From IMG/VR virus record IMGVR_UViG_3300035698_030196: DNA of 64,000 nucleotides, one strand, 5' to 3'. The first letter of the stretch is position 1. Every line of letters starts with the position of its first letter. Shown piece by piece: positions 7,378 to 63,418 of this stretch. The notes beneath the pieces were generated by a model that worked only from the letters and a program-made list of their open reading frames with translations, was not told where the DNA came from and ran no database searches. The DNA is from an uncultured virus (IMG/VR IMGVR_UViG_3300035698_030196). Lineage: Duplodnaviria; Heunggongvirae; Uroviricota; Caudoviricetes. A program made the translations under genes and the position numbers.

Positions 7378-8568
7378 ATGAAAATGATGAAATATGATGA
7401 ATTTATTATTGAAAAAGTTATACACCAAGAAATTACTTTACCTAATGATATTAAAGAAATAGCAAAAGCTTATCATGATGTTGGTAAAGAGTTATATGTT
7501 GTTGGTGGAGCTATTAGAGATTTTCTACAAGGAAAAACACCACATGATTATGATTTAACAACAAATGCATTACCAGATGAAAGTAAAAAAATACTCAAAG
7601 ACTGGAATGTCTCTGATGAACAAGGTAAAAAATTTGGGGTTTTAAGAGTTTTTACAAAAAATGAACCACTTGGACATGAAATAGCATCATTTAGAAAGGA
7701 TATTTCTGGTGGTAGAGATAATAAAGGTGATGATGAAAAAGTGGAAATAGGTGAACATATCACAATAGAAGATGATTGTATGAGACGTGACCTTACAATA
7801 AATTCAATTTTTTATGATATTAACAAAAAAGAAATTGTCGATTTAGTCGGTGGTATAGAGGATATTAAAAATAATATAATACGATGTGTTGGTAATCCTA
7901 GTGATAGATTTAGAGAAGATCGTTTAAGAATTTTACGTTGCCTACGTTTCACAACTAGAATTGATGGTAAAATAGACAAAAAAACATCAAATGCTATTCA
8001 TGATGATAACAGATTAAAGGGTATTGGGACTCTAGATGATGTTTCACAAGAAAGAATATGGGAAGAAATGTGCAAAGCATTTGACCAAAGTAAAAATTAT
8101 AATAATTACTTAGAACTTTTGACAGAATTTGATATGTGGGATCAAGTATTTCCTGGTGCTGATATAAATTCTGATTTAGTTGATTCTAAAAACTTCACAA
8201 TTATCATAACTAACTTGTTTAAGAATGATTATTCTGGTAATGATTTCCTAAATAGATTGGTTCAAGAATATAGAATCGAAGGTGATTTAGCAACTAAAGT
8301 AGAATTCTTAATTAATTTTTCAGATTTTGATTCAGAAGATGTATGTAAAGTTTATAAAAAGAAGAGACAGTGTGAGATAGATGATAACACTATATTGGAA
8401 TGGATGGAAGTTAATAACTTACAAGAAGATAAATTTATTAAGTTTGTCGATTATAGACCTTCTATTTCATCACAGGAATTAATGGCTAAAGGTTTTAGAA
8501 AAAAAGCGCTTGGTGATGAAATAAATAGATTAGAAGTAGAGAAATTTCAATCTGTGATAAAAGGATAA
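7378..8568 (+). CDS. cca: Class II tRNA nucleotidyltransferase (CCA-adding enzyme / poly(A) polymerase family) with N-terminal leader
   Basis: VGGAIRD, DYDLTT, RRDLTINS, EDRLRILR, SQERIWEE motifs. Confidence 0.85.
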   Translation: MKMMKYDEFIIEKVIHQEITLPNDIKEIAKAYHDVGKELYVVGGAIRDFLQGKTPHDYDLTTNALPDESKKILKDWNVSDEQGKKFGVLRVFTKNEPLGHEIASFRKDISGGRDNKGDDEKVEIGEHITIEDDCMRRDLTINSIFYDINKKEIVDLVGGIEDIKNNIIRCVGNPSDRFREDRLRILRCLRFTTRIDGKIDKKTSNAIHDDNRLKGIGTLDDVSQERIWEEMCKAFDQSKNYNNYLELLTEFDMWDQVFPGADINSDLVDSKNFTIIITNLFKNDYSGNDFLNRLVQEYRIEGDLATKVEFLINFSDFDSEDVCKVYKKKRQCEIDDNTILEWMEVNNLQEDKFIKFVDYRPSISSQELMAKGFRKKALGDEINRLEVEKFQSVIKG

Positions 8569-9342: not shown

Positions 9343-9408
9343 ATACTTATATATTAAATATTATAAGACAGAAAAAAAATATTGATAAAAAATATAATAT
9401 ATAAACAC

Positions 9409-10152
9409 ATGATACATTATATACAACACTTGCGTGATTCCTTAGGTAACAACTACCTTGGTATAAAAATACAAAAAGATACAATTCATACTTTTTTAAA
9501 AGAATTAGATATAATTCTTGGTGATAATTACAAAAAATTTACAGAATTACAACAAATAAGAGACAATGGTGAATACCATATAACTATAATTAATGTTAGT
9601 GAGTATAATCGACTTACCAAGTGGATGGGTATAGATAAATTCGTAAACTCACTTGGTAAAATTTTCACATATGAAATCGATGATTTGAAAATGATGGGTA
9701 TTGGAACTGCAACAAAACGTGATAACAGAACTTATTTTATTGTATGTGAATCCGATAAGTTAGATGCTATTAGAAATAGATATGAATTATCTGAAAAAGA
9801 TTTTCATACAACTTTAGCATTTTTCAGGCGTGATGTATTTGGTGTTCGCAAGAATGAGGTAATGAAAAAAGATGGTTTATTTTTACAACTTTTAAGACAA
9901 GAGTTTTATAAGAGTGAAAATTGGGAGTTTATTAAAGATATAGATAACTATACTTTAGATAAAAATGATGAGATAATACCAATTGAAATTGATAATACAA
10001 ATATGAAATTCAAAGTAGGTGATAATTATATACAAGTTGGGTATTCAGATGAATTAGAAAAATTTCAAGTATTTACTAAATCAGATATTGATGGTGATAA
10101 TTTACCTAGACTTCCACAAACAGAAATAATTAAAATTTTAAACAAAGAATAA
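9409..10152 (+). CDS. 2H phosphoesterase (RNA-repair type, two HxT motifs)
   Basis: YHITII and FHTTLAF motifs; ATG 9409 follows TAATATATA, so preferred over the TTG at 9382. Confidence 0.7.
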   Translation: MIHYIQHLRDSLGNNYLGIKIQKDTIHTFLKELDIILGDNYKKFTELQQIRDNGEYHITIINVSEYNRLTKWMGIDKFVNSLGKIFTYEIDDLKMMGIGTATKRDNRTYFIVCESDKLDAIRNRYELSEKDFHTTLAFFRRDVFGVRKNEVMKKDGLFLQLLRQEFYKSENWEFIKDIDNYTLDKNDEIIPIEIDNTNMKFKVGDNYIQVGYSDELEKFQVFTKSDIDGDNLPRLPQTEIIKILNKE

Positions 10153-10857: not shown

Positions 10858-11262
10858 ATGAATATTATATTTACAGACATTGATGGTGTTTTAAACCCCG
10901 ATTGGACAACTAAATGGAAAAGACGTGCGGTTAGAATGTATAATAAGATATGTGAAGAATTTAATCTAATACCGGTTATAACTTCAACATGGCGAATAAA
11001 TTATACAAAAGAAGAATTACAAGAAATCTTTAAGAAACAAGGAATTAAAGCAATAATCTTAGATTATACACCGAATTTAGAAGATGATAGAGGTTTAGAA
11101 ATAAAATCTTGGTTAGATAGCAATAGTTACGATAATTTTGTTATAATAGATGATAGAATTACTGATATAATACCACATGTAAATAATACTGTGAAGTGTG
11201 ACCCATTAGAAGGATTAACTAAGAAAGAATATGAAGAAATAATGAAAATAATGCTCAAATAA
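10858..11262 (+). CDS. HAD-superfamily phosphatase, RNA-repair (HAD_SAK-like) type
   Basis: FTDIDGVLN (DxD), ITSTWR, RGLEIKSWL, FVIIDD. Confidence 0.8.
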   Translation: MNIIFTDIDGVLNPDWTTKWKRRAVRMYNKICEEFNLIPVITSTWRINYTKEELQEIFKKQGIKAIILDYTPNLEDDRGLEIKSWLDSNSYDNFVIIDDRITDIIPHVNNTVKCDPLEGLTKKEYEEIMKIMLK

Positions 11263-16103: not shown

Positions 16104-16121
16104 TTTTAATATATATTAAAA
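16104..16121. promoter_or_regulatory. Palindromic TTTTAATATATATTAAAA motif
   Basis: Identical 18-mer at 41333-41350. Confidence 0.55.
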
Positions 16122-17685: not shown

Positions 17686-18046
17686 TTATATCTTTAATAT
17701 TAAATTTGAAAGCATGTCTTTTAGATAATTCTCTCTTTATCTCTTTCATAATTGAATCTACTTCATCTCTACTGTAAGAAATTAATGTAAACTGAAGTGT
17801 ATAAGAATTAGAATCTTCATCAATTAACTCAGATTCTAAACCACTTATATCAACTTCGATCTTTTCTGAGATTTTTAAAATCTCTTCTTTCAAGTCTTCT
17901 ATTGTAAATTTTGATTTAGAATCTTTTAATAAACTAATAACCACTTGAACAGCAAATTCATCGGTTGGGTCTGAATATCTGAATCCAGCTGCTTGTCCTG
18001 GTCCGTTGTATTCATTTATTACGTATTCATTAAATTTCTTAATCAT
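17675..18046 (-). CDS. Leader-bearing hypothetical protein
   Basis: MIKKFNEYVINE; TTAATATATA upstream. Confidence 0.7.
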   Translation of the reverse strand: MIKKFNEYVINEYNGPGQAAGFRYSDPTDEFAVQVVISLLKDSKSKFTIEDLKEEILKISEKIEVDISGLESELIDEDSNSYTLQFTLISYSRDEVDSIMKEIKRELSKRHAFKFNIKDITIL

Positions 18047-18144
18047 ATCTCATTATTTTATTTTTATTATAGTATATATTAATTTTTTTTACTATTTTTG
18101 TATTTGTGAAAAAGAATATATATTAAAAATCAATAAACGAAAAT

Positions 18145-19914
18145 ATGGCACTAATTAAAGAATATGATCAATTTATTATAAGTAAAAGAATCAATGAAAG
18201 TATGAGTGGTGGCAATGTAAGAACACGATTCGCACCAAGCCCTACTGGTAGCTTACATTGTGGTGGTATACGTACTGCATTATATAATTATCTTTTTACT
18301 AAGCAAAATGGTGGTGAATTTATTCTAAGAATCGAAGATACAGATTCGACTAGATTTGTCCCAACTGCGGAGAAATATATCGAAGATACATTTGAGTGGT
18401 TAGGTATAGAATTTGACGAAAGTCCTAGTAAAGGTGGTCCTTATGGTCCCTATCGCCAATCAGAAAGAAGAGAAATTTATAAAGAATATTATAAAGAGTT
18501 GATAGATTCTGGTAATGCATATTATGCGTTTGATACCGCAGATGAATTAAATCAGGTAAGAGAAGATATTGAGAATTTTTCATATAATTATCAAACAAGA
18601 GATAAAATGAAGAATTCATTAACTTTATCTGATGAAGAAGTTAATGAGCTATTAAAAACACAAACAGATTGGGTAGTCAGAATCAAATATCCTGATACTC
18701 CTATTAATATAGTAATAAGTGATTTAGTTAGAGGTAATGTAACTGTTAATAGTTCAACTGTTGATGACAAAGTTATTTGGAAAAAGAAAGATGATTTACC
18801 TACTTATCACTTAGCTAATGTTGTAGATGACCACTTAATGAAAATTACACACGTAATTAGAGGAGAAGAATGGTTACCATCTGCACCTTTGCATGTTTAT
18901 TTATATGATTGTTTTGGATGGGATTGTCCTACTTTTGCACACCTTGCCTTAATTTTAGGACCTGATGGTAGTAAATTAAGTAAAAGAGATGGTGATAAAT
19001 ATGGTTTCCCTGTATTCCCACTATCATATACTGATTTTAATGATGATACTAAGATCGTTCAAGGTTATCGTGAGAATGGATATCTACCAGAAGCAGTTTT
19101 AAATATCTTGGCTTTCATTGGTTGGAATCCAGGTACTGAAAAAGAAGTTTATACAATTGATGAATTAATTAAAGATTTTGACTTATCTAGAGTTAACAAA
19201 GCAGGTGCTAAGTTTAACCCTGTTAAAGCAGGTTGGTTCAATGGTCAGCACATTAAAAACACTGATAGTAAGGAATTGTTACCAGAATTAAAAAGTGTCT
19301 TACAGGAGAAGGGTGTAGACCTGGATGATGATTTTATTCTAAAAGTATTAGATGAGAATAAAGGGAAAGTTAATTTTGTTAAAGATATTTACGACCAAAT
19401 TGAATTCTTATTTAAAGCACCAACTACATATGATTCTAAACTATTGAGAAAAATTAGTCCAGATTCAAATAGAATTGTTAGCGAATTTACTGAGTTAATT
19501 AGTGATATGACAAATTGGGATGCAGAAGATATCAAAACTAAATTAGAAGAATATGTTGCTAATTCTGATGTTAATTTCAATGATATAGCAATGCCGATAA
19601 GATTATTACTTACCGGTAAAGGATATGGTTCATTCTTCGAATTAATGGAAACTTTAGGGAAAGAAGAAACTTTAAATAGATTAAGTGTAGAATTGCCAAT
19701 TGTAGAGAGATCAACTGAAGTTAAAGTCGATAACTCTAAACAAGTAGCTATGATTAAAGAAATCGAACTTATTAAGAAGATAATTAAAGGTGGTGAAGCA
19801 AAACTAAACAATAAAAAGTTTACAGAAAGAGCACCAGAAGCAGTTGTCGCAAAAGAACGAATTAAAATAGATGAACTTAAAATCAAACTTTCAGACTTAG
19901 AGAGTAAAGTATAA
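18145..19914 (+). CDS. gltX: Glutamyl-tRNA synthetase with N-terminal leader and C-terminal ValRS-like coiled-coil arm
   Basis: RTRFAPSPTG, HCGG (HIGH), LRIEDTD, YRQSER, PTYHLANVVDDH, IRGEEWL, KLSKR (KMSKS). Confidence 0.95.
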   Translation: MALIKEYDQFIISKRINESMSGGNVRTRFAPSPTGSLHCGGIRTALYNYLFTKQNGGEFILRIEDTDSTRFVPTAEKYIEDTFEWLGIEFDESPSKGGPYGPYRQSERREIYKEYYKELIDSGNAYYAFDTADELNQVREDIENFSYNYQTRDKMKNSLTLSDEEVNELLKTQTDWVVRIKYPDTPINIVISDLVRGNVTVNSSTVDDKVIWKKKDDLPTYHLANVVDDHLMKITHVIRGEEWLPSAPLHVYLYDCFGWDCPTFAHLALILGPDGSKLSKRDGDKYGFPVFPLSYTDFNDDTKIVQGYRENGYLPEAVLNILAFIGWNPGTEKEVYTIDELIKDFDLSRVNKAGAKFNPVKAGWFNGQHIKNTDSKELLPELKSVLQEKGVDLDDDFILKVLDENKGKVNFVKDIYDQIEFLFKAPTTYDSKLLRKISPDSNRIVSEFTELISDMTNWDAEDIKTKLEEYVANSDVNFNDIAMPIRLLLTGKGYGSFFELMETLGKEETLNRLSVELPIVERSTEVKVDNSKQVAMIKEIELIKKIIKGGEAKLNNKKFTERAPEAVVAKERIKIDELKIKLSDLESKV

Positions 19915-19918
19915 AAAT

Positions 19919-19951
19919 AAAAAAGGAGCTTATATATAAGCTCCTTTTTTT
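19919..19951. terminator. Bidirectional intrinsic terminator
   Basis: AAAAAAGGAGCTTATATATAAGCTCCTTTTTT palindrome between convergent genes. Confidence 0.8.
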
Positions 19952-20993
19952 ATAACCAATTATCTGAGATATATTCTATTTCTTCGAAATCACAATCAAC
20001 TGTATAACCAGTTAACCATTTTATTACTCTTAAATCAGACGATGTTATTCCTTGTTTGATCTTAATTATTTTACCTGAAATATTTTTACAATCATCATTA
20101 GCAAATTTACAAATACCTTTTCGGTGTAGCATACAAACGTGTTTCTCCTTATGTATAATTTTATGTTCAAATGGTATATTAACATATTCAATATCTAATG
20201 AATCTTGTTCCTTCTTATATTCTAAGCATTTATCCTTCATTGGACACTTTGAACAACGCATTTCATTCGGTCTATAATAATGTGCGTTATAATCCCTATC
20301 TAGATTATGTGAATAACTAATTAAGCATGATGTTTTTCTAAAAGTGGGAACATTATATTTCTCACCTAAGTTATAAAATAAGTCTTCAACTTCTTGTGAT
20401 AAAGATTTCTTCAAACCCAATTCATACCCATCATATGCTTCAAAATTAATATTATTTTCTATGAAGTGTTGTTTCAACTCATCATTAACTTGTAACCCAC
20501 AAAATCCAATTGGTGCATTATATTTATTCGCCATCTTATAGATATTTTCAACTACCTCTGGTGAATCATTTATATCTTTAATAACTGGTCTATATTCAAT
20601 TGAGTATTTATACTTTGTTTTTGAAATTAATTTTAAATTGTTTTCAAAGTTTTTCAAATTACCACCATCATATTTAGAATTTATACCAAAAGTGGAAAAG
20701 GCAAAATGTAAGTCTAAATCAAATTCCATATCTGGAAATTTAGAAAAACTACCTTTTGTTATTATAACAACTGGGCCTCTGTGTTTTACTTCTTCTAACC
20801 TTTTTAAATAAGAAATTGTGCTATCTATTTGTAACATTGGGTCACCATAGAATAAATTTACTGCTACTGGTAAATCTATAAATAGTGGGTTTATTTCAGA
20901 TGGTAGTTTATCAAATACAATTTTCTTTTTTGATTCACCCATTAATCTACAATAAGAACAATTTAAACATTTCTCTAAAGAGTTTCCCAGCAT
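19950..20993 (-). CDS. Radical-SAM-like Fe-S protein with atypical CxxCxxC motif
   Basis: CLNCSYC near N-terminus, GDP, IITK, RPVI..IND; additional Cys clusters at the C-terminus. Confidence 0.6.
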   Translation of the reverse strand: MLGNSLEKCLNCSYCRLMGESKKKIVFDKLPSEINPLFIDLPVAVNLFYGDPMLQIDSTISYLKRLEEVKHRGPVVIITKGSFSKFPDMEFDLDLHFAFSTFGINSKYDGGNLKNFENNLKLISKTKYKYSIEYRPVIKDINDSPEVVENIYKMANKYNAPIGFCGLQVNDELKQHFIENNINFEAYDGYELGLKKSLSQEVEDLFYNLGEKYNVPTFRKTSCLISYSHNLDRDYNAHYYRPNEMRCSKCPMKDKCLEYKKEQDSLDIEYVNIPFEHKIIHKEKHVCMLHRKGICKFANDDCKNISGKIIKIKQGITSSDLRVIKWLTGYTVDCDFEEIEYISDNWL

Positions 20994-37160: not shown

Positions 37161-38424
37161 AACATAAAAGGTGCTTTTTTAGCCTTTGTTATTTTAATAT
37201 ATACCAATATGTTAAAGTCGTATAAATATAAGTTAATTCCAAATGATAATCAAGTTGTTTTACTAAATAAACATTTTGGGTCTATTCGATTCGTTTATAA
37301 TCACTTTCTAAATGAACGTAAAGTTAAATATGAGAAAAATAAAGAAAGCTTAAACTATAATGATAACTCAAGTTCATTAACAAAATTAAAAAGATTAGAC
37401 GAATTTAAATGGTTAAGGGAAATTAATTCACAGTCCTTACAAGTATCACTTAAACATTTAGATGATGCGTATAATTCTTTTTTTAAAAAGAGGACCGGGT
37501 TCCCTAAATTTAAGTCAAAACACACAAAAGATAGTTTTAAAATCCCACAATATGTTAGAGTTATTGGTGGTAGATTACTAATTCCTAAATTTAAAACTGG
37601 TATTAAAATCATACAAGATAGAAAGTTCAAAGGTAAGATAAGACAATGTACAATATCTAAAACAATAACAAACGAATATTTTGTTAGTATTTTGGTGGAA
37701 ACAACACATAGTGTTGTTTCAAAAACAGGTGAAAATATTGGGATTGATTTAGGAATTAAAGATTTTGTTATAACAAGTGATGGTTATAAATATAAGAACA
37801 ACAGATATACAAAAACATATGCTAAAAAACTAAAAAAACAACAGCAACATTTAAGTAGAAAAGTTAAAGGAAGTAATAGATACAATAAACAAAAATTAAA
37901 AGTAGCCAAGATACATAAGAAGATAACCAATTCTCGTGTAGATAATTTACATAAAGTATCCACCGATTTAATAAGAAAATATGATATAATTTTCTTAGAA
38001 GATTTAAATATCAAAGGAATGATTAAAAACCATAAATTATCGAAGCATATTGCTGATGTTTCATGGGGTAAGTTCATAGATATGTTGAATTATAAGGCAA
38101 AGTGGAATGATAGACAAATTGTTAAAATTGGTAGATTTTTTCCTTCTAGTAAAACATGTAATTGTTGTGGGTATATTAATCAAAATCTTAACTTAGGTAT
38201 AAGGGAATGGGTTTGTATATCCTGTGATACTAAATTAGATAGAGATTTAAATGCTAGTAAAAATATTCTTAAAGAAGGATATAAAATCATATCATCGTCA
38301 GGGACTGACGATAACAGATGCGGAGATGAAATAAGACCGACTTTAGTTGGCAAAATCTATGAAACGTCAAAAAAGAAGAAACCTAGTGTTTCTGAAACAC
38401 ACACAACCGTGCAGTGTAGTTCAT
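37161..38424 (+). mobile_element. tnpB-only (IS1341-like) element; ends approximate
   Basis: No tnpA nearby; right end GTAGTTCA at 38416-38423; weak AAAGG/CCTTT hairpin at the left. Confidence 0.55.
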
Positions 38425-38468
38425 ATATAAATAAATTAAAATCAAAAACTATAGAATGTCTAAGATAA
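37209..38468 (+). CDS. tnpB: TnpB RNA-guided endonuclease (IS200/IS605 family)
   Basis: N-terminal HTH, GFPKFK, RuvC GIDLG / FLEDL / DRDLNA, zinc finger SSKTCNCCG..CISC. Confidence 0.95.
   Translation: MLKSYKYKLIPNDNQVVLLNKHFGSIRFVYNHFLNERKVKYEKNKESLNYNDNSSSLTKLKRLDEFKWLREINSQSLQVSLKHLDDAYNSFFKKRTGFPKFKSKHTKDSFKIPQYVRVIGGRLLIPKFKTGIKIIQDRKFKGKIRQCTISKTITNEYFVSILVETTHSVVSKTGENIGIDLGIKDFVITSDGYKYKNNRYTKTYAKKLKKQQQHLSRKVKGSNRYNKQKLKVAKIHKKITNSRVDNLHKVSTDLIRKYDIIFLEDLNIKGMIKNHKLSKHIADVSWGKFIDMLNYKAKWNDRQIVKIGRFFPSSKTCNCCGYINQNLNLGIREWVCISCDTKLDRDLNASKNILKEGYKIISSSGTDDNRCGDEIRPTLVGKIYETSKKKKPSVSETHTTVQCSSYINKLKSKTIECLR
38290..38445 (+). ncRNA. Putative TnpB omegaRNA (scaffold + guide)
   Basis: ATCGTCAG-gga-CTGACGAT hairpin 38294-38312, CCGAC..GTTGG hairpin, terminal TAGTTCA; position at the tnpB 3' end is typical. 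Confidence 0.55.
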
Positions 38469-41332: not shown

Positions 41333-41350
41333 TTTTAATATATATTAAAA
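41333..41350. promoter_or_regulatory. Palindromic bidirectional TTTTAATATATATTAAAA motif
   Basis: Between divergent leader-bearing genes 41310(-) and 41367(+). Confidence 0.65.
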
Positions 41351-42740: not shown

Positions 42741-43904
42741 TTATTTCATATTAGCTAATAATGATGCAGTGATTTCAGCAGTTGCACATTTACTTAGTCT
42801 ATCTATAATAACAGTTGTTAATCCATTAGTACCAGTTCCTACAGTATCATCTACAGGCACTCCTTCGTTAACTGTTGCTGCTGGTGGAACTGCTAGTGTT
42901 CCTGTTAACCCCGATACAGGGCCATAAACAGTATCTTTTCTAACATCTGCTTCAGTTGGCATTCCTGTTACTGCGATTTCTGCTACTAAGTATTGAGAAG
43001 TTCCTCCAAAATCAGAAAATTCCCACTCTGTTGTTGGTGTTACATTTAGGAATAGCTTAGGAGAATGTATTGCCATAACACCTAATTCATTATAAACATT
43101 TCCTTCATAAATTATAACTGAGGTTGGTTGACTATTATAAATAGCTGCAACACTATTGCCATATGCGTTTCCATTTATAATCATATTAGTATTTGTTCCG
43201 GAATTATAAACGGAATACGCTGAATTTGCAATTTGATTTCCAGTTATATTAAATATTACACTGGATTCAGAATTACTGATTCCAACACTATCAATAATCC
43301 CACTACCACCAATTTGATTTCCGGTTACGTTAAATTCTGCATCAGCTACAACATTTTCTACTCCAGTAGATTTTATTGTACCACCACCGCCAATTTGATT
43401 TCCAGTTATATTAACAAGTAATCCATTATAATTTATAAACCCATAATTGAATCCACTAATACCTGCTATTTGATTTCCTATTAGATTAACATCATACGTA
43501 CTATAATTAGTACATCCGGATGCATAATAAATAACATTCCCACCAGTAATATTACCGATATGTGTCCATATATTAGTATGAGTAGATAATCTAGATACAC
43601 AAGAACGTAATGTCGTCGCCGTGCCTGATTGAGATATGTCTGCACCATAAATATCTCCTTGAGTTGTTATCTCTAATGTACCATCTATTTGAAATTGACC
43701 ACCTCTTAATATATTAGTAGCAATTTTTTTATAAAAGTTATTACAACTCACATTAGACAAAATAGTAACTATATGAGAATTGCTATATACATCATCACTA
43801 ACTCCAGGTAAAACAGTAGATGCTACAAAACTACCTGTTCCATCATCTTCCCAAGTTGCTAAATCACTCCAATTTCCGTCTACTATTGCTTTATAATTTG
43901 CCAT
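42741..43904 (-). CDS. Putative tail-fibre/receptor-binding beta-helix protein
   Basis: GNWS...W..LP...DDVY start, repeated NITGNQIG, C-terminal LTGTLAVP module. Confidence 0.6.
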   Translation of the reverse strand: MANYKAIVDGNWSDLATWEDDGTGSFVASTVLPGVSDDVYSNSHIVTILSNVSCNNFYKKIATNILRGGQFQIDGTLEITTQGDIYGADISQSGTATTLRSCVSRLSTHTNIWTHIGNITGGNVIYYASGCTNYSTYDVNLIGNQIAGISGFNYGFINYNGLLVNITGNQIGGGGTIKSTGVENVVADAEFNVTGNQIGGSGIIDSVGISNSESSVIFNITGNQIANSAYSVYNSGTNTNMIINGNAYGNSVAAIYNSQPTSVIIYEGNVYNELGVMAIHSPKLFLNVTPTTEWEFSDFGGTSQYLVAEIAVTGMPTEADVRKDTVYGPVSGLTGTLAVPPAATVNEGVPVDDTVGTGTNGLTTVIIDRLSKCATAEITASLLANMK

Positions 43905-43919
43905 TTCTTAATTTTTATT

Positions 43920-45161
43920 TTATGAATAACTTGCAGTTAGATGATTATCCCAACTATCAGTAGCGTATGTTTCACTTGTTATTGAGCCATCTATTGCAAG
44001 TACTATTTTTGTTAAATTCCACACTGTCGAACTATCTAAAGTTCCTACTGGTGCAGTTCCTAAATACATCAAGTCTGGAGGGCCTGTCATGTAATCATAT
44101 CTCTTATCATTATAAGGAATTAACTCAGCAGGTGCTCCGTTATAAGAAGCAATTTGTTGTCCTGTTATTGCGACTGTTGAACAATTCTCTAATCTTGATA
44201 TTATATCACCACTTAATTCATAAGTACCAATTGTGTCATCAGTAGGGACTCCTTTGTTAACTAAACTCGGATCAGGTACTGCTAATGTCCCAGTTAATGT
44301 TGCTGAAGCATAATCGGTTCCTAATCTTACATTCTCTTCTCCTGGTTGGTCAAACGCATCTGCTGAATAAATATCAAAAGAATTTGCACCTGTTTCTATT
44401 GATATTACTATTGGTTCATTAAAGTTATGAAGAATTCTACCCGTAGTGTAGGAACCAATACTACCCTCACCATCAACTATATAATAAACACCTGATATAG
44501 TAGCAGTTATACTATTTGCTCTTGAAGTTGCTGCAAATACAGCAGTTCTTTTTGCAAGTCCTATCATATTTAAACTATTGAAATAACCAATTGCAGGTAT
44601 AGTTGCTGATGGATATAAAGCACCTATTAAATCTACATATAGATATGCTACTGTGCTGGCAACTAAACCATAAGCATTTGTTGTTGAAATAACATCACCT
44701 ATCATTGTTACATTACAAGCGCCATAAGTTTGTGCGTGTTGAAATCCGTGTGCATTTAATTCTGTTCCAGCGTAAATGTTTCCAGTGATGTTAAAATAGC
44801 AAGGATTTCCTCCAAGATTTTTTAAACCTATCATTGAAGGTGTAGTATTACTGCCATATATATTACCAATTATAGTCATCAATTTATTGGTTGCTGATGA
44901 GTGAGTTACACAAATAGAAGAACCTGCAACAATATCACATATTAAGGTGAATTGAACATTGGTATAATTAAAACCACCTCCACCAACACTTGTAGTAGGA
45001 CAAACTTCTGTACTTATTTTTGTTACCTCAATGTCTTGGTCTAATGTTACAGTAAATCCGTTAGCATATACATCATCACCGACTGTTGGTAATGATACTC
45101 CACCATCCCAAGTTCCTACTGCTGACCAATTTCCTGATGCTATTGCGTATCGTATTGCCAT
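43920..45161 (-). CDS. Putative tail-fibre/receptor-binding protein, paralog of 42741..43904
   Basis: Same N-terminus and LTGTLAVP module, plus an extra C-terminal module shared with 45360..47303. Confidence 0.6.
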   Translation of the reverse strand: MAIRYAIASGNWSAVGTWDGGVSLPTVGDDVYANGFTVTLDQDIEVTKISTEVCPTTSVGGGGFNYTNVQFTLICDIVAGSSICVTHSSATNKLMTIIGNIYGSNTTPSMIGLKNLGGNPCYFNITGNIYAGTELNAHGFQHAQTYGACNVTMIGDVISTTNAYGLVASTVAYLYVDLIGALYPSATIPAIGYFNSLNMIGLAKRTAVFAATSRANSITATISGVYYIVDGEGSIGSYTTGRILHNFNEPIVISIETGANSFDIYSADAFDQPGEENVRLGTDYASATLTGTLAVPDPSLVNKGVPTDDTIGTYELSGDIISRLENCSTVAITGQQIASYNGAPAELIPYNDKRYDYMTGPPDLMYLGTAPVGTLDSSTVWNLTKIVLAIDGSITSETYATDSWDNHLTASYS

Positions 45162-45359: not shown

Positions 45360-47303
45360 TTATAATGCAGCTCTATTTGACCATTGCCAATTCTCAGTTG
45401 TAACACTTGAAGTTATGACACCGGCTGCTGTTGTTGTTATTTTTGTTATAGTCCAAACTGCATCTGTTTCTAAACTACCAGTAACTGCATATCCATTATA
45501 AGATACTAATGTATCATAATCTGCTCGTCGTATATATATAATAGCATTTAGACCATCAGAACCTGTTGCACCAGTTGCACCAATCGGACCTGTATCGCCA
45601 GTTAATCCAATCGAACCCGTTGCACCAGTTAATCCAATCGGACCTGTATCGCCAGTTAATCCAATCGGACCTGTATCGCCAGTTAATCCAATCGAACCCG
45701 TTGCACCAGTTAATCCAATCGAACCCGTTGCACCAGTAGGACCTGTATCGCCAGTATTTCCGGTTGAACCTGTTGCACCGACAGGACCAACTGTGCCAAT
45801 TCCATCATTTCCACTTCTACCCGACTTACCTCTTGATGGTTTTTTAGTATCTGTTCCATTTACATACCAATTTCCATTTTCACCGATATAAGGTGTATAA
45901 CCATTTGCACCTGATTTACCAGATATTGATCTAGATTTTGGTGTAGATATAGCAGAAGATGTAGGTGAAACTTTTATTGTGCTTGAGCTTCTATTTGTGA
46001 TTGCTGTTGAGTCAGAACTATTCACCGTCTCAGTACTTCTATTATTTGAAATTACTGGCGATAAATCAGATTCTGAATCATCATTAACAAACTGTGCATC
46101 TGATGAAAAAACAATTTCGTATTGAGATCTAAGACCATCTACTTCATCACTAGTTAATCCTGATAAAATTTCACCATTTGGTAATTCTACATCATAAACT
46201 AATATTTCTTCCTCAAATTCTGATTCCTTAATATTAGTTAGTTCTTTCAAATCATCATTCACTTTAGTTAAACTGTCTAACTGTGATAAAGCATCATCAA
46301 TTTCTTTCTGTGATTTATCAGTTCTTTTCATTGCCCTAGTCTTACTCTCTGGGTCAGTGATTATATAATCATCTAATAATGATTTTACCTCATCAACATC
46401 ATCTTCATCAACTTTACTAAAATCATTCTTTGGTAGATATTTTAATTTTCTTAATTTTCTTGACCTTTGCTTAATTCTTTTAGCTTCTTTCTCAGGACTC
46501 ATATTATCTTTTAAACCATCGGTTGCTAATTTAATAACTGCATCAATTTTACCTGTAAAATTAAAGACTGTAGTGTTTAAAATTTTATAAGTAGCATTTA
46601 AAATACCCGTTACTTTATCTGTATTACTCGGTGAACAAACCAATCCAATATCTTTAAAATAAATGAATGTGCTTTTAACATCATTACTTTTTGATTTTAA
46701 TGTCTTTAATGTCATAACTACATTAAGCATTAATGTTATCATACCTGGTACATTAAATGAAAATGGTGATAATAATAGAATTGAGCCAGGGATAGATTGT
46801 GTTAAACTAATACCTGAAATAGCAACTTCTTCTAATAGTTCCTTAGTTTTTCTAACAAATTCTGTTGATTTCTCAAGTAATATTGTTTTTATTTCTTCTA
46901 CACCACCATAAAGATAATCTGTTTTTGAAATTAATCCATTTGATAATGATTTTTTAGAATCATCTATTACTTTAGATATCTCATTTTTTTTATAAGGTGT
47001 ATCACCCTCGTTTTTTAAGTCATCTAATTCACTTGAAAGTGTTTTCTTTGAATCAGCAACTACTTTATTAATTTCACTTTTCTTATCATCTAATTCACTT
47101 AATGAATTCTTAGAATTCTCTTTAAAGCCATCTATTAATAGGTCTGCGTCCTCTTTTGATAGGTTTGGACTTCTAGTTAATAGAATATTCTTAGCTATTT
47201 CTGAATCTGGTAAGAAGTAGTTCTTTAAGTCAAAACCAGGTGCAGACATTTCTGATTTAACTGATTCAATATTTTTTAATAATTTATCTAAATTTGATGA
47301 CAT
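45360..47303 (-). CDS. Modular structural protein with collagen-like Gly-X-Y repeats
   Basis: Helical N-terminus, Ser-rich linker, [12 protein letters not shown] motif, GATG/GDTG triplets. Confidence 0.7.
45555..45800 (-). repeat. 27-bp-period tandem repeats encoding collagen-like triplets
   Basis: Alternating CCAGTTAATCCAATCGAACCCGTTGCA / CCAGTTAATCCAATCGGACCTGTATCG units. Confidence 0.85.
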
Positions 47304-54106: not shown

Positions 54107-54139
54107 ATTAATATATAAACAAAGGAAAAATTAATAATT

Positions 54140-61531: not shown

Positions 61532-63418
61532 TTAATCAACTTCTTCGAAAGAAACATCTTCAGTACCATCATCTTCTTCAGGTGGCGTTTGCTGTTCTTC
61601 AGTAACAGATTCATTAGATTCTTGATATAGTTTAGTGCTAATCTTAGACCAAGTTTCATTTAATTTTTCAGCATGAACATCAATGTCTTCTAAATTTTCA
61701 GATTTATGTGCTTCTTTAAGATTTTCTAAATCGTTACCTAAATCTTTCTTATCATCATCTGTTAGTTTATCATCAAATTCTTTCATCTGTTTATCCGTTT
61801 GGAAAATAAGATTATCTGCCATATTCATCTTATCAACCTTCTCTTTCTCTATACGATCACTTTCGGCATTTTCTTCAGCATCTACTCTCATTCTATCAAC
61901 TTCTTCTTTAGATAATTGTGAACCACCTTCAATTCTAATTTGGTTTTCTTTACCAGTTGCTTTATCCTTAGCTGATACAGATAGAACACCGTTAGCATCA
62001 ATATCTAAAGATACTGTAATTTGTGGAACACCACGAGGTGCTGGCATTATTCCATCTAAATGGAATCTACCTAAATCTCTATTATCTCTAGCCATTGGTC
62101 TTTCACCTTGTAGAACATGTATTTCTACTGATGGTTGGTTGTCTGATGCAGTAGAGAATGTCTCTTCTTTTCTAGTAGGGATTGTAGTGTTAGCTTCAAT
62201 CAATCTAGTTAGTACACCACCCATAGTTTCGATTCCTAGAGAGATAGGAGTAACATCTAGCAACAATACATCAGTAATGTCTCCGGATAAAACAGCGCCT
62301 TGTATAGCTGCTCCCATAGCCACAACTTCATCCGGGTTAACTGATTTATTTGGTGCTTTACCAATGAATTGTTCCAAAGCTTCTTGTATTGCTACAATTC
62401 TGGTTGAACCACCAACTAAAATAACTTCATCGATATCAGATGTTTTTAGTTTAGCTTTTTTTAATGCTGATTTAGCAAAGTGTATTGTTCTATCAACTAA
62501 ATTAGAACTTAATTGTTCAAATTTTGCCCTTGATAGAGTCTTAACTAAATGCACTGGTCCTGCTTCACTAATAGTTAAATAAGGTAAATTTATTTCTGTT
62601 TGTGAAGAAGAAGATAATTCAATCTTAGCTTTCTCTGCGGCTTCTTTCAAACGTTGAATAGCACTTGGGTCTTTTGCTAAGGCAAACCCATTGTCTGTTT
62701 TAAATTCTGAAAGTAACCAATCGATAATAACATTATCAAAATCATCACCACCTAAGTGTGTATCACCATCAGTAGATTTAACTTCAAAAACACCATCACC
62801 TATTTCTAATATTGATACATCGTGTGTTCCACCACCACAATCAAATACTAGAATTTTTGAATCTGTGCCTTTTTTATCAAGCCCATAAGCCAATGCAGCT
62901 GCAGTAGGCTCGTTGATAATTCTTTCAACTTCTAAACCTGCAATTTTACCTGCTTCAATAGTTGCGGTTCTTTCTGCATCACCAAAATATGCAGGAACAG
63001 TAATAACTGCTTTTTTAACCTCTTTACCTAAGAAATCTTCCGCAGTTTTCTTCATCTTTTGTAAAATCATTGCAGATAATTCTTGTGGAGTATAATTCTT
63101 GTCACCAATTTTAACACTTGGGATATTATTACCACTATCTACAATTTTATAAGAAACTTTACTTGTCTCATCTTTGATGAAGGAAAAATCTTTACCTATA
63201 AATCTCTTTATAGATGAGATTGTTCTCTCTGGGTTTACAATAGATTGTCTTTTAGCACCATCACCAACTTTCCTATCTTCATCAGTGAATGCTATGATTG
63301 ATGGAGTTGTTCTACCTCCTTCTGAGTTAGCGATTACGATTGGTTCTCCACCTTCAACTACTGAAACACAACTCGTAGTGGTTCCAAGATCAATCCCTAT
63401 AATTACTTCTTTTTTCAT
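61532..63418 (-). CDS. dnaK: Chaperone DnaK (Hsp70)
   Basis: [50 protein letters not shown]. Confidence 0.97.

Follow-up and report, generated by a model that had tools for sequence, protein, structure and literature searches.

A phage glutamyl-tRNA synthetase with a valyl-tRNA synthetase-type arm and a widely shared N-terminal tag

Synthetase genes are known from huge phages and have usually been treated as plain copies of host genes. The locus analyzed here raises the question of why such a gene should end in a segment that resembles part of another synthetase. It belongs to an uncultured virus of the Caudoviricetes (IMG/VR record IMGVR_UViG_3300035698_030196), of which a stretch of 64,000 nucleotides, hereafter the window, was studied. 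An open reading frame (ORF) at 18145..19914 on the plus strand starts with ATG and encodes 589 residues. In a preliminary description it was proposed to be a chimeric glutamyl-tRNA synthetase (GluRS), made up of an N-terminal leader, a Bacteroidota-like body and the C-terminal coiled-coil arm of a valyl-tRNA synthetase (ValRS). The parts of the gene are listed below; structural statements refer to an AlphaFold2 (AF2) model that was computed on an alignment of 121 sequences and has a mean predicted local distance difference test (pLDDT) score of 90.1.

18145..18201, plus strand: leader, residues 1-19 (MALIKEYDQFIISKRINE, then S), with a tag of the form aromatic-x-x-aromatic ... I-N-E
18214..19221, plus strand: class I catalytic domain, residues 24-359 (Pfam PF00749, tRNA-synt_1c, E 6.2e-91)
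18256..18267, plus strand: HIGH motif, here HCGG, residues 38-41
18973..18987, plus strand: KMSKS-type motif KLSKR, residues 277-281, identical in 121/121 sequences
19306..19686, plus strand: anticodon-binding domain, residues 388-514 (Pfam PF19269, Anticodon_2, E 9.2e-26), all-helical in the model
19687..19734, plus strand: linker, residues 515-530, poorly conserved, with pLDDT <50 at residues 523-529
19735..19914, plus strand: ValRS-type arm, residues 531-589, plus the stop codon (PF10458, hhalign and AF2 model)

Judged by its profile matches, the product of this ORF is a complete bacterial-type GluRS. The NCBIfam equivalog model TIGR00464 (gltX_bact) matched residues 25-515 with 448.8 bits at a cut-off of 289.95, and the segment LGKEETLNRL, residues 505-514, forms the end of the anticodon-binding domain. 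The HIGH motif does read HCGG, as had been stated; its H, G and G sit in conserved columns, and the 121 rows of the family alignment, which comprise the query and its 120 best metagenomic matches to the whole protein (from NCBI, JGI, ENA and Logan), contain HIGG in 82 cases, HCGG in 13, HVGG in 12, HLGG in 8, HAGG in 3, HMGG in 2 and a gap in 1. The best Foldseek matches of the model were the Elizabethkingia GluRS structures 6brl and 6b1z (51% identity, E 1e-55, target-normalised TM score of 0.91-0.93). The 80 best cellular loci, taken from species-representative genomes, showed 46-55% identity and bore names of the Bacteroidota type except for the last two listed, so that the proposed Bacteroidota likeness of the body was upheld. 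The body is descended from a Bacteroidota-type GluRS, all of whose catalytic and anticodon-binding features it has kept. That GluRS genes of huge phages group with those of Bacteroidetes had been reported by Al-Shayeb et al. 2020 (Extended Data Fig. 7a; PMC7162821). The catalytic domain, the anticodon-binding domain, the HIGH motif and KLSKR are common to the present protein, cellular GluRS of Bacteroidota and the huge-phage GluRS of that study. The hosts of the source phage are of the Bacteroidota type.

Two other identities were considered and rejected. Assignment as GluQRS is excluded by scores below the equivalog cut-offs of all three models (185.9 vs 250, 184.1 vs 276.7 and 171.5 vs 256 bits) and by the full anticodon-binding domain; the NCBIfam models for archaeal GluRS and for GlnRS also remained below their cut-offs. 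A ValRS identity is excluded as well: the ValRS domains tRNA-synt_1 and Anticodon_1 were not found in the protein, and the NCBIfam ValRS model NF004349 reached 23.9 bits at a cut-off of 704, through its last 64 positions only.

Compared with cellular GluRS, the phage enzyme is extended by 19 residues at its N-terminus and by 75 at its C-terminus. Two cellular GluRS checked by hand, of 505 and 509 residues, begin with the catalytic core and have nothing beyond the anticodon-binding domain. A recognisable ORF was present at 79 of the 80 cellular loci, none of them exceeding 535 residues even when counted from the farthest upstream ATG, and the arm motif was found in no forward frame of these 79 loci.

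What, then, is the C-terminal extension? About 75 additional residues had been noted beyond LGKEETLNRL, and these correspond to residues 515-589, which contain KLNNKKFTERAPEAVVAKERIKI and consist of a 16-residue linker followed by a 59-residue helical hairpin. Their proposed origin from ValRS was borne out by several profile searches. The Pfam family Val_tRNA-synt_C (PF10458) matched residues 538-585 with an E-value of 4.6e-7 and 30.5 bits, above its gathering cut-off of 25.9, and the arms of relatives were matched with 40.8, 48.7 and 53.8 bits. The ValRS model NF004349 aligned its own positions 796-859 of 860 to residues 524-588 (E 1.1e-5). When the profile of the GluRS family was compared by hhalign with a profile of 19 ValRS C-termini, a probability of 98.5% was obtained (E 2.5e-15, 67 columns, 37% identity), the two consensus lines being nearly identical; this ValRS set had been collected with the arm as query and is recognised independently by Pfam. 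The hhalign result and the higher scores of the relatives mean that the match is more than chance. A search of 1.84 billion representatives with the arm only returned 35 matches at E<=1e-3, the best at 3.1e-6; Pfam analysis of 20 of the 35 identified 19 ValRS arms without a GluRS domain, nine of which also had Anticodon_1, and one GluRS with an arm.

The model predicts arm helices at residues 531-555, 557-562 (the tip) and 565-588, with block-mean pLDDT of 81-92, and places the conserved motif L-x-N-x-x-F-x-x-x-A-P-x-x-V-V at the hairpin turn. The arm of ValRS, as represented by PF10458 and by the Thermus thermophilus ValRS-tRNA complex (1GAX), has in common with this segment the tip motif K-L-x-N-x-x-F-x-x-x-A-P-x-x-V-V, a helical hairpin, which is predicted for the phage enzyme, and the position of the last domain after the anticodon-binding region. 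The differences are that the arm is here carried by a class Ib GluRS body and not by a ValRS body (tRNA-synt_1 plus Anticodon_1), that it is joined through a disordered linker of variable length, and that its contact with tRNA is putative. On the strength of the profile comparisons, residues 531-589 are a true homologue of the ValRS tRNA-binding arm. No paper on a GluRS with a ValRS arm was found in the open-access library searched; the supplementary lists of synthetases that accompany Al-Shayeb et al. 2020 were outside this search.

The metagenomic origin of the window, together with an arm match that lies near the Pfam threshold in this particular protein, might suggest that the junction is an assembly chimera or that the extension is read-through into non-coding DNA. 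This explanation is hardly credible. The junction (residues ~490-550) is bridged with 0 differences by contigs from four sequencing runs, X1-X4, that belong to four studies (contigs covering 19613-19948, 18971-19782, 19623-19773 and 19615-19802); single runs leave parts of the gene uncovered, and the window may itself stem from the sample of one of these runs. The same architecture recurs among the 120 best relatives, of which 70 have it (67 full-length proteins and three short forms); with the query included, 71 of the 121 rows have the arm. The stop codon is directly followed by a hairpin resembling a terminator, the sole such site in 17900-20100:

19919-19950, strand not assigned: terminator-like hairpin of 14 pairs, flanked on either side by T-runs and located between the GluRS gene and the convergent ORF at 19950-20993 (minus strand)

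The word chimeric was therefore apt in one sense only: it describes an old, conserved domain fusion in evolution, and not an artefact of assembly.

A FastTree phylogeny restricted to the columns of residues 24-514 placed 70 of the 71 arm rows in one clade of 75 rows with a support of 100; its neighbours are two clades without the arm, one of 22 rows and one of 20. According to this phylogeny, the fusion is old and conserved and was gained in a single clade, in a phage ancestor. We regard the fusion and its conservation as solid. Among 70 related loci in IMG/VR, three match through residue 589 when the alignment is used as query; the corresponding search with the single protein returned no viral contig, and the alignment query was needed. 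For two of these three contigs, 43 and 54 kb long, CheckV estimated a completeness of 6% and 13%, so that the genomes must be very large, and one relative is located on a contig of 616,614 bp. The GluRS of the 735-kb phage LR756501 has the leader and no arm.

Conservation within the arm is concentrated at the tip. F559, A563 and P564 are invariant in all 71 arm-bearing sequences, and near-invariant positions are N556 and V567 (70 of 71), L554 (69), and E539 and K574 (68). These conserved positions are those common to ValRS arms. The linker varies in these sequences both in sequence and in length (4-28 residues). The alignment indicates that the tip motif has been strictly conserved since the arm was gained. 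A phage lineage has moved a tRNA-binding module between synthetase families, and strict selection has maintained it.

In three relatives, P0086, P0090 and P0094, each about 450 residues long, the catalytic domain is fused straight to the arm and no Anticodon_2 domain is present; in P0086 the catalytic domain spans residues 24-362 and the arm residues 392-450 (53.8 bits). The three form a supported group nested within the arm clade. Their loss of the anticodon reader amounts to a natural experiment on what a GluRS needs at minimum for holding its tRNA. One of the clusters without an anticodon-binding domain comprises 4 members, the longest of whose contigs measures 35.8 kb.

That the arm was kept while the anticodon-binding domain was lost in these three relatives argues that the arm most likely adds a grip on tRNA that is independent of the anticodon, the body of the tRNA being held whatever its anticodon. 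According to the review PMC4810234, ValRS (1GAX) is one of a small number of synthetases in contact with the elbow of tRNA, and elbow contacts can act as identity elements in ValRS and LeuRS. By extension, the arm of the phage enzyme would reach along the tRNA to the elbow, the corner of D-loop and T-loop, as it does in ValRS. This contact would add anticodon-independent affinity, and the added affinity might allow the phage enzyme to capture tRNA-Glu against competition from the host enzyme. The substrate may be a phage-encoded, under-modified or repaired tRNA. A higher affinity for tRNA had been suggested in the preliminary description, and the three short forms lend this idea indirect support; the mechanism is plausible. 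Taken as a whole, the best explanation of the locus, and one that we hold to be moderately probable, is a working phage GluRS in which a ValRS arm provides an anticodon-independent grip on tRNA and the leader is a separate tag.

General tRNA-binding modules, appended to a synthetase or acting in trans, include Arc1p (which serves yeast GluRS and MetRS), Trbp111 and EMAPII-type domains, all of which have an oligonucleotide/oligosaccharide-binding fold (OB-fold). The idea appears to be the same here, in that a non-catalytic add-on would raise the affinity for tRNA without reading the anticodon, but fold and origin differ, since the phage module is a coiled-coil hairpin taken from another synthetase. 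By this analogy, the phage GluRS is functionally closest to synthetases with general tRNA-binding add-ons.

Several observations weigh against this explanation or against parts of it. The arm of the present protein exceeds the PF10458 cut-off by just 4.6 bits, over profile positions 11-58 of 66. A word-indexed search with residues 515-589 produced 341 candidates, none of them at E<=0.01, and a phmmer search of the PDB sequences with the 75-residue arm retrieved no solved ValRS, only the unrelated coiled coil STU2 at E 0.13. The net charge is +5 for the arm and -25 for the body of this protein, but the arms of the family have a median net charge of 0 (range of -3 to +5), which means that a general electrostatic grip on RNA is not family-wide. 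The AF2 model is not reliable as to how arm and body are oriented to each other, because the linker is disordered. One arm row, P0121, stands on a long branch outside the main clade, and five rows within that clade have no arm, being fragments or sequences that stop in the linker, most of them on contigs of 1.7-2.8 kb. Finally, ARAGORN detected no tRNA-Glu gene in the window or in the covered parts of two related contigs.

Alternatively, the arm could serve as a protein-protein or ribosome-docking module that tethers GluRS to phage translation factors, to itself or to the ribosome, comparable to the coiled coils of eukaryotic multi-synthetase complexes and of ABC-F proteins. Its shape would suit such a role, as the model shows a coiled-coil hairpin, and so would the neutral median charge in the family and the ABC_tran_CTD matches, below threshold, of two ValRS arm fragments. 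In the same direction points a free-standing half-arm ORF of 130 residues in LR756501, which indicates that the arm module is used in other contexts. The invariant residues, however, are located at the hairpin tip common to ValRS arms and not along the heptad seam, and the model folds the arm back on itself in the manner of ValRS; moreover, the forms that have lost the anticodon-binding domain would keep no contact with the tRNA body if the arm did not bind tRNA. Docking of this kind is considered unlikely.

The half-arm ORF (~130 residues) is located at ~483.5 kb of LR756501 (L076 1408-1803, minus strand), where it contains half of the arm motif, matches PF10458 with 28.3 bits and adjoins a methyltransferase gene; as mentioned above, the GluRS of this phage is arm-less.

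A further proposal, which follows a suggestion of the preliminary description, is that the arm alters the choice of tRNA, so that the enzyme would be non-discriminating and also charge tRNA-Gln, would prefer phage-specific tRNAs or would take part in a GluQRS-like modification. The role of elbow contacts as identity elements in ValRS and LeuRS, mentioned above from PMC4810234, is compatible with this proposal, as are the short forms without any anticodon reader and the tRNA-Gln(UUG) genes on related contigs. Yet the anticodon-binding domain of the full-length protein is entire and well conserved, the protein scores as a gltX equivalog and falls below every GluQRS cut-off, and no tRNA with an unusual elbow was identified. 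Altered specificity is thus quite unlikely, and the reading in which the arm grips the body of tRNA-Glu is preferred.

The second question raised by the locus concerns the leader, which is 18 residues long. It had been noticed on this protein in the preliminary description; it is present on phage GluRS and was not found on cellular GluRS (79 recognisable ORFs of the 80 best loci). In the AF2 model it forms a helix at residues 2-12, predicted with low confidence, and pLDDT is <50 at residues 13-22. The tag residues are Y7, F10 and I16-N17-E18. Across the 121 rows, position 7 is F in 56 and Y in 47, position 10 is F in 93 and Y in 11, position 16 is L in 52, M in 25 and I in 22, and position 18 is E in 99. 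Arm-bearing and arm-less phage clades alike conserve the leader, as does LR756501.

The same tag recurs on other proteins of the window. Its form is M-x(2-7)-[YF]-x-x-[FY] with [hydrophobic]-x-E no more than a few residues behind, and examples are MEIKNYLKFINE, MIILKKYKDFLFE and MNKIDKYNDFGLNE, each then continuing with S. Tagged ORFs, in a list that is incomplete, start at the following positions:

Plus strand: 1472, 7378, 14816, 16135, 18145 (GluRS), 35384, 54558, 58043, 60206
Minus strand: 5617, 13278, 18046, 26864, 39832, 41310, 63931

The frequency of a strict form of the tag at N-termini, and in internal 24-residue windows of the same proteins, was as follows:

Window: 18/82 ORFs at N-termini, 17/690 internal windows
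LR756501, 100-150 kb: 8/43 at N-termini, 7/578 internal windows
G001, an arm-bearing relative: 15/63 at N-termini, 14/406 internal windows
G002, an arm-bearing relative: 8/87 at N-termini, 6/411 internal windows

In the window this corresponds to a ~9-fold enrichment at N-termini, and a looser pattern gave 24/82 at N-termini and 26/1055 internally. Apart from GluRS, the tag is borne by a CCA-adding enzyme and by a peptidase (phrog_4191); most tagged proteins belong to no known family.

It is possible, although not the preferred reading, that the leader is no sorting tag at all and represents the footprint of gene capture, by which a portable promoter and the first codons were acquired together, or that it reflects biased translation starts in a genome rich in A and T. 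A promoter-like intergenic motif, TTAATATATA, does recur upstream of many genes, with 24 copies in the window and 3.17 expected by shuffling, and two of its copies are found in the divergent region that precedes the GluRS gene:

18073-18082, written on the minus strand: intergenic motif TTAATATATA
18117-18126, written on the minus strand: intergenic motif TTAATATATA

Further sites are, for example, 1440-1449, 16106-16115, 41335-41344 and 54108-54117. The copies inspected are intergenic and lie upstream of genes on both strands, and their position makes this motif a likely promoter element of the phage. The control region of phage T4 also counts in favour of this reading, as the loose pattern matched there six N-termini of proteins other than internal proteins. 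Against a footprint, TTAATATATA precedes untagged as well as tagged genes, and the first 38 bases of the GluRS gene are not repeated elsewhere in the window, with <=3 mismatches allowed; the tagged genes have a peptide pattern in common and no stretch of DNA. Taken together, these three observations identify the tag as a feature at the peptide level. Furthermore, the tag positions vary conservatively (F/Y, L/M/I, E) in the 121 GluRS while their neighbours drift, the N-terminal enrichment was repeated in three other phage records, and beyond residue 25 only 2 pairs among 23 tagged proteins are paralogous.

A capture cassette acting at the DNA level, as a source of the leader of the GluRS gene in particular, was considered and rejected in view of the unique 38 bases and the lack of a common DNA stretch. 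A sigma-70 promoter scan around the GluRS gene identified 11 sites, as compared to 13.2 in shuffled sequences, and hence no excess.

The leader is a separate module, a tag borne by about one fifth of the proteins of this lineage, and most plausibly it would act as a sorting or propeptide signal of the T4 capsid-targeting type. The internal proteins of T4 have propeptides of 10-19 residues that direct them to the head, with residues 4 and 7 required for targeting and residues 8 and 10 for processing, according to the review PMC9026906. The corresponding N-termini are MKTYQEFIAE in IPII and IPIII and MKTFKEFTSTTTPVSTITEA in IPI. When the strict pattern was applied to the T4 control, IPI, IPII and IPIII were matched together with two others among 65 ORFs. 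These two are gp57B (MMEFKDFSTGLYVAAKFSE, then L; L072 23952-24410, minus strand) and e.8; both are probably chance matches and illustrate the false-positive rate of the strict pattern.

The capsid-targeting sequences of IPI, IPII and IPIII, which are removed by the prohead protease gp21, and the tag described here agree in having two aromatic residues three positions apart and then [I/L/M]-x-E, which occupies residues 16-18 in the phage GluRS, and in being attached to many unrelated proteins of one phage. The likeness is one of a short motif, not of homology. The two systems differ in that the present tag occurs on ~20% of ORFs, including enzymes of cytoplasmic type such as GluRS, the CCA-adding enzyme and the peptidase. 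One fifth of the ORFs would make a very large number of cargo proteins, which weighs against a capsid-targeting function. No prohead protease (Peptidase_S77) was detected by Pfam among 66 ORFs of the window, which is part of the genome only, and two Peptidase_S77 matches in LR756501 failed to reach the cut-off of 27 (24.1 and 23.6 bits).

Virion delivery of the enzyme, which had been suggested earlier, is a hypothesis, for which the likeness of the leader to the T4 sequence and its occurrence on many unrelated ORFs are circumstantial evidence. In its boldest form, the leader would be a working capsid-targeting propeptide, and a toolkit of GluRS, CCA-adding enzyme, peptidase and altogether about one fifth of the proteins would be loaded into the head and injected with the DNA, the arm again serving as an anticodon-independent grip; this combination is put forward tentatively and is, on balance, doubtful. 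Under this scenario, the charging and repair of tRNA would be ready before phage genes are expressed, the armed GluRS would work on phage-encoded, under-modified or nuclease-damaged tRNAs, and the arm would have replaced the anticodon-binding domain outright in some relatives. If the tag were a head-loading signal, translation enzymes would belong to the injected cargo of the largest phages, and this would change the understanding of how the host is taken over early in infection. In the open-access library searched, no paper was found on T4-like tags in megaphages or on packaged phage synthetases, the supplementary tables of the huge-phage study being outside the search.

The surroundings of the gene are those of a densely packed phage genome. 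The G+C content of the window is ~28% throughout, and the majority of its ORFs have no Pfam match; those with a match fit an uncultured huge phage. The stretch is present in 18 sequencing runs labelled as salt lake metagenome; the runs listed as containing it include no RNA run. Features outside the GluRS gene include:

7378-8568, plus strand: CCA-adding enzyme, itself N-terminally tagged (Pfam)
9382-10152, plus strand: 2H-phosphoesterase "Swiss Army Knife" RNA-repair domain (Pfam)
10858-11262, plus strand: HAD "Swiss Army Knife" RNA-repair domain (Pfam)
37209-38468, plus strand: TnpB / IS605 OrfB-type protein (HTH_OrfB_IS605, OrfB_IS605 and Cas12f1-like TNB domains)
45360-47303, minus strand: collagen-repeat protein
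61532-63418, minus strand: full-length Hsp70/DnaK (PF00012, 811.7 bits)

The CCA-adding enzyme and the two "Swiss Army Knife" ORFs form a tRNA/RNA-repair set ~7-10 kb upstream of the GluRS gene, which, like the tRNA genes on related contigs, is context in favour of the preferred explanation. A dUTPase and a GIY-YIG nuclease are also encoded in the window. ARAGORN predicted no tRNA gene in the window. Arrays of tRNA genes that include tRNA-Gln(UUG) are present in the two arm-bearing IMG/VR relatives:

L079 56-3602: array of 10 tRNA genes in G001
L083 11241-15173: array of 14 tRNA genes in G002

The adjacent ORFs at 42741-43904 and 43920-45161, both on the minus strand, and the ORF of the collagen-repeat protein do not carry the leader-type tag. 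The first two have N-termini that resemble each other (MANYKAIVDGNWSDLATW and MAIRYAIASGNWSAVGTW), and this pair beside the collagen-repeat ORF may constitute a fibre module.

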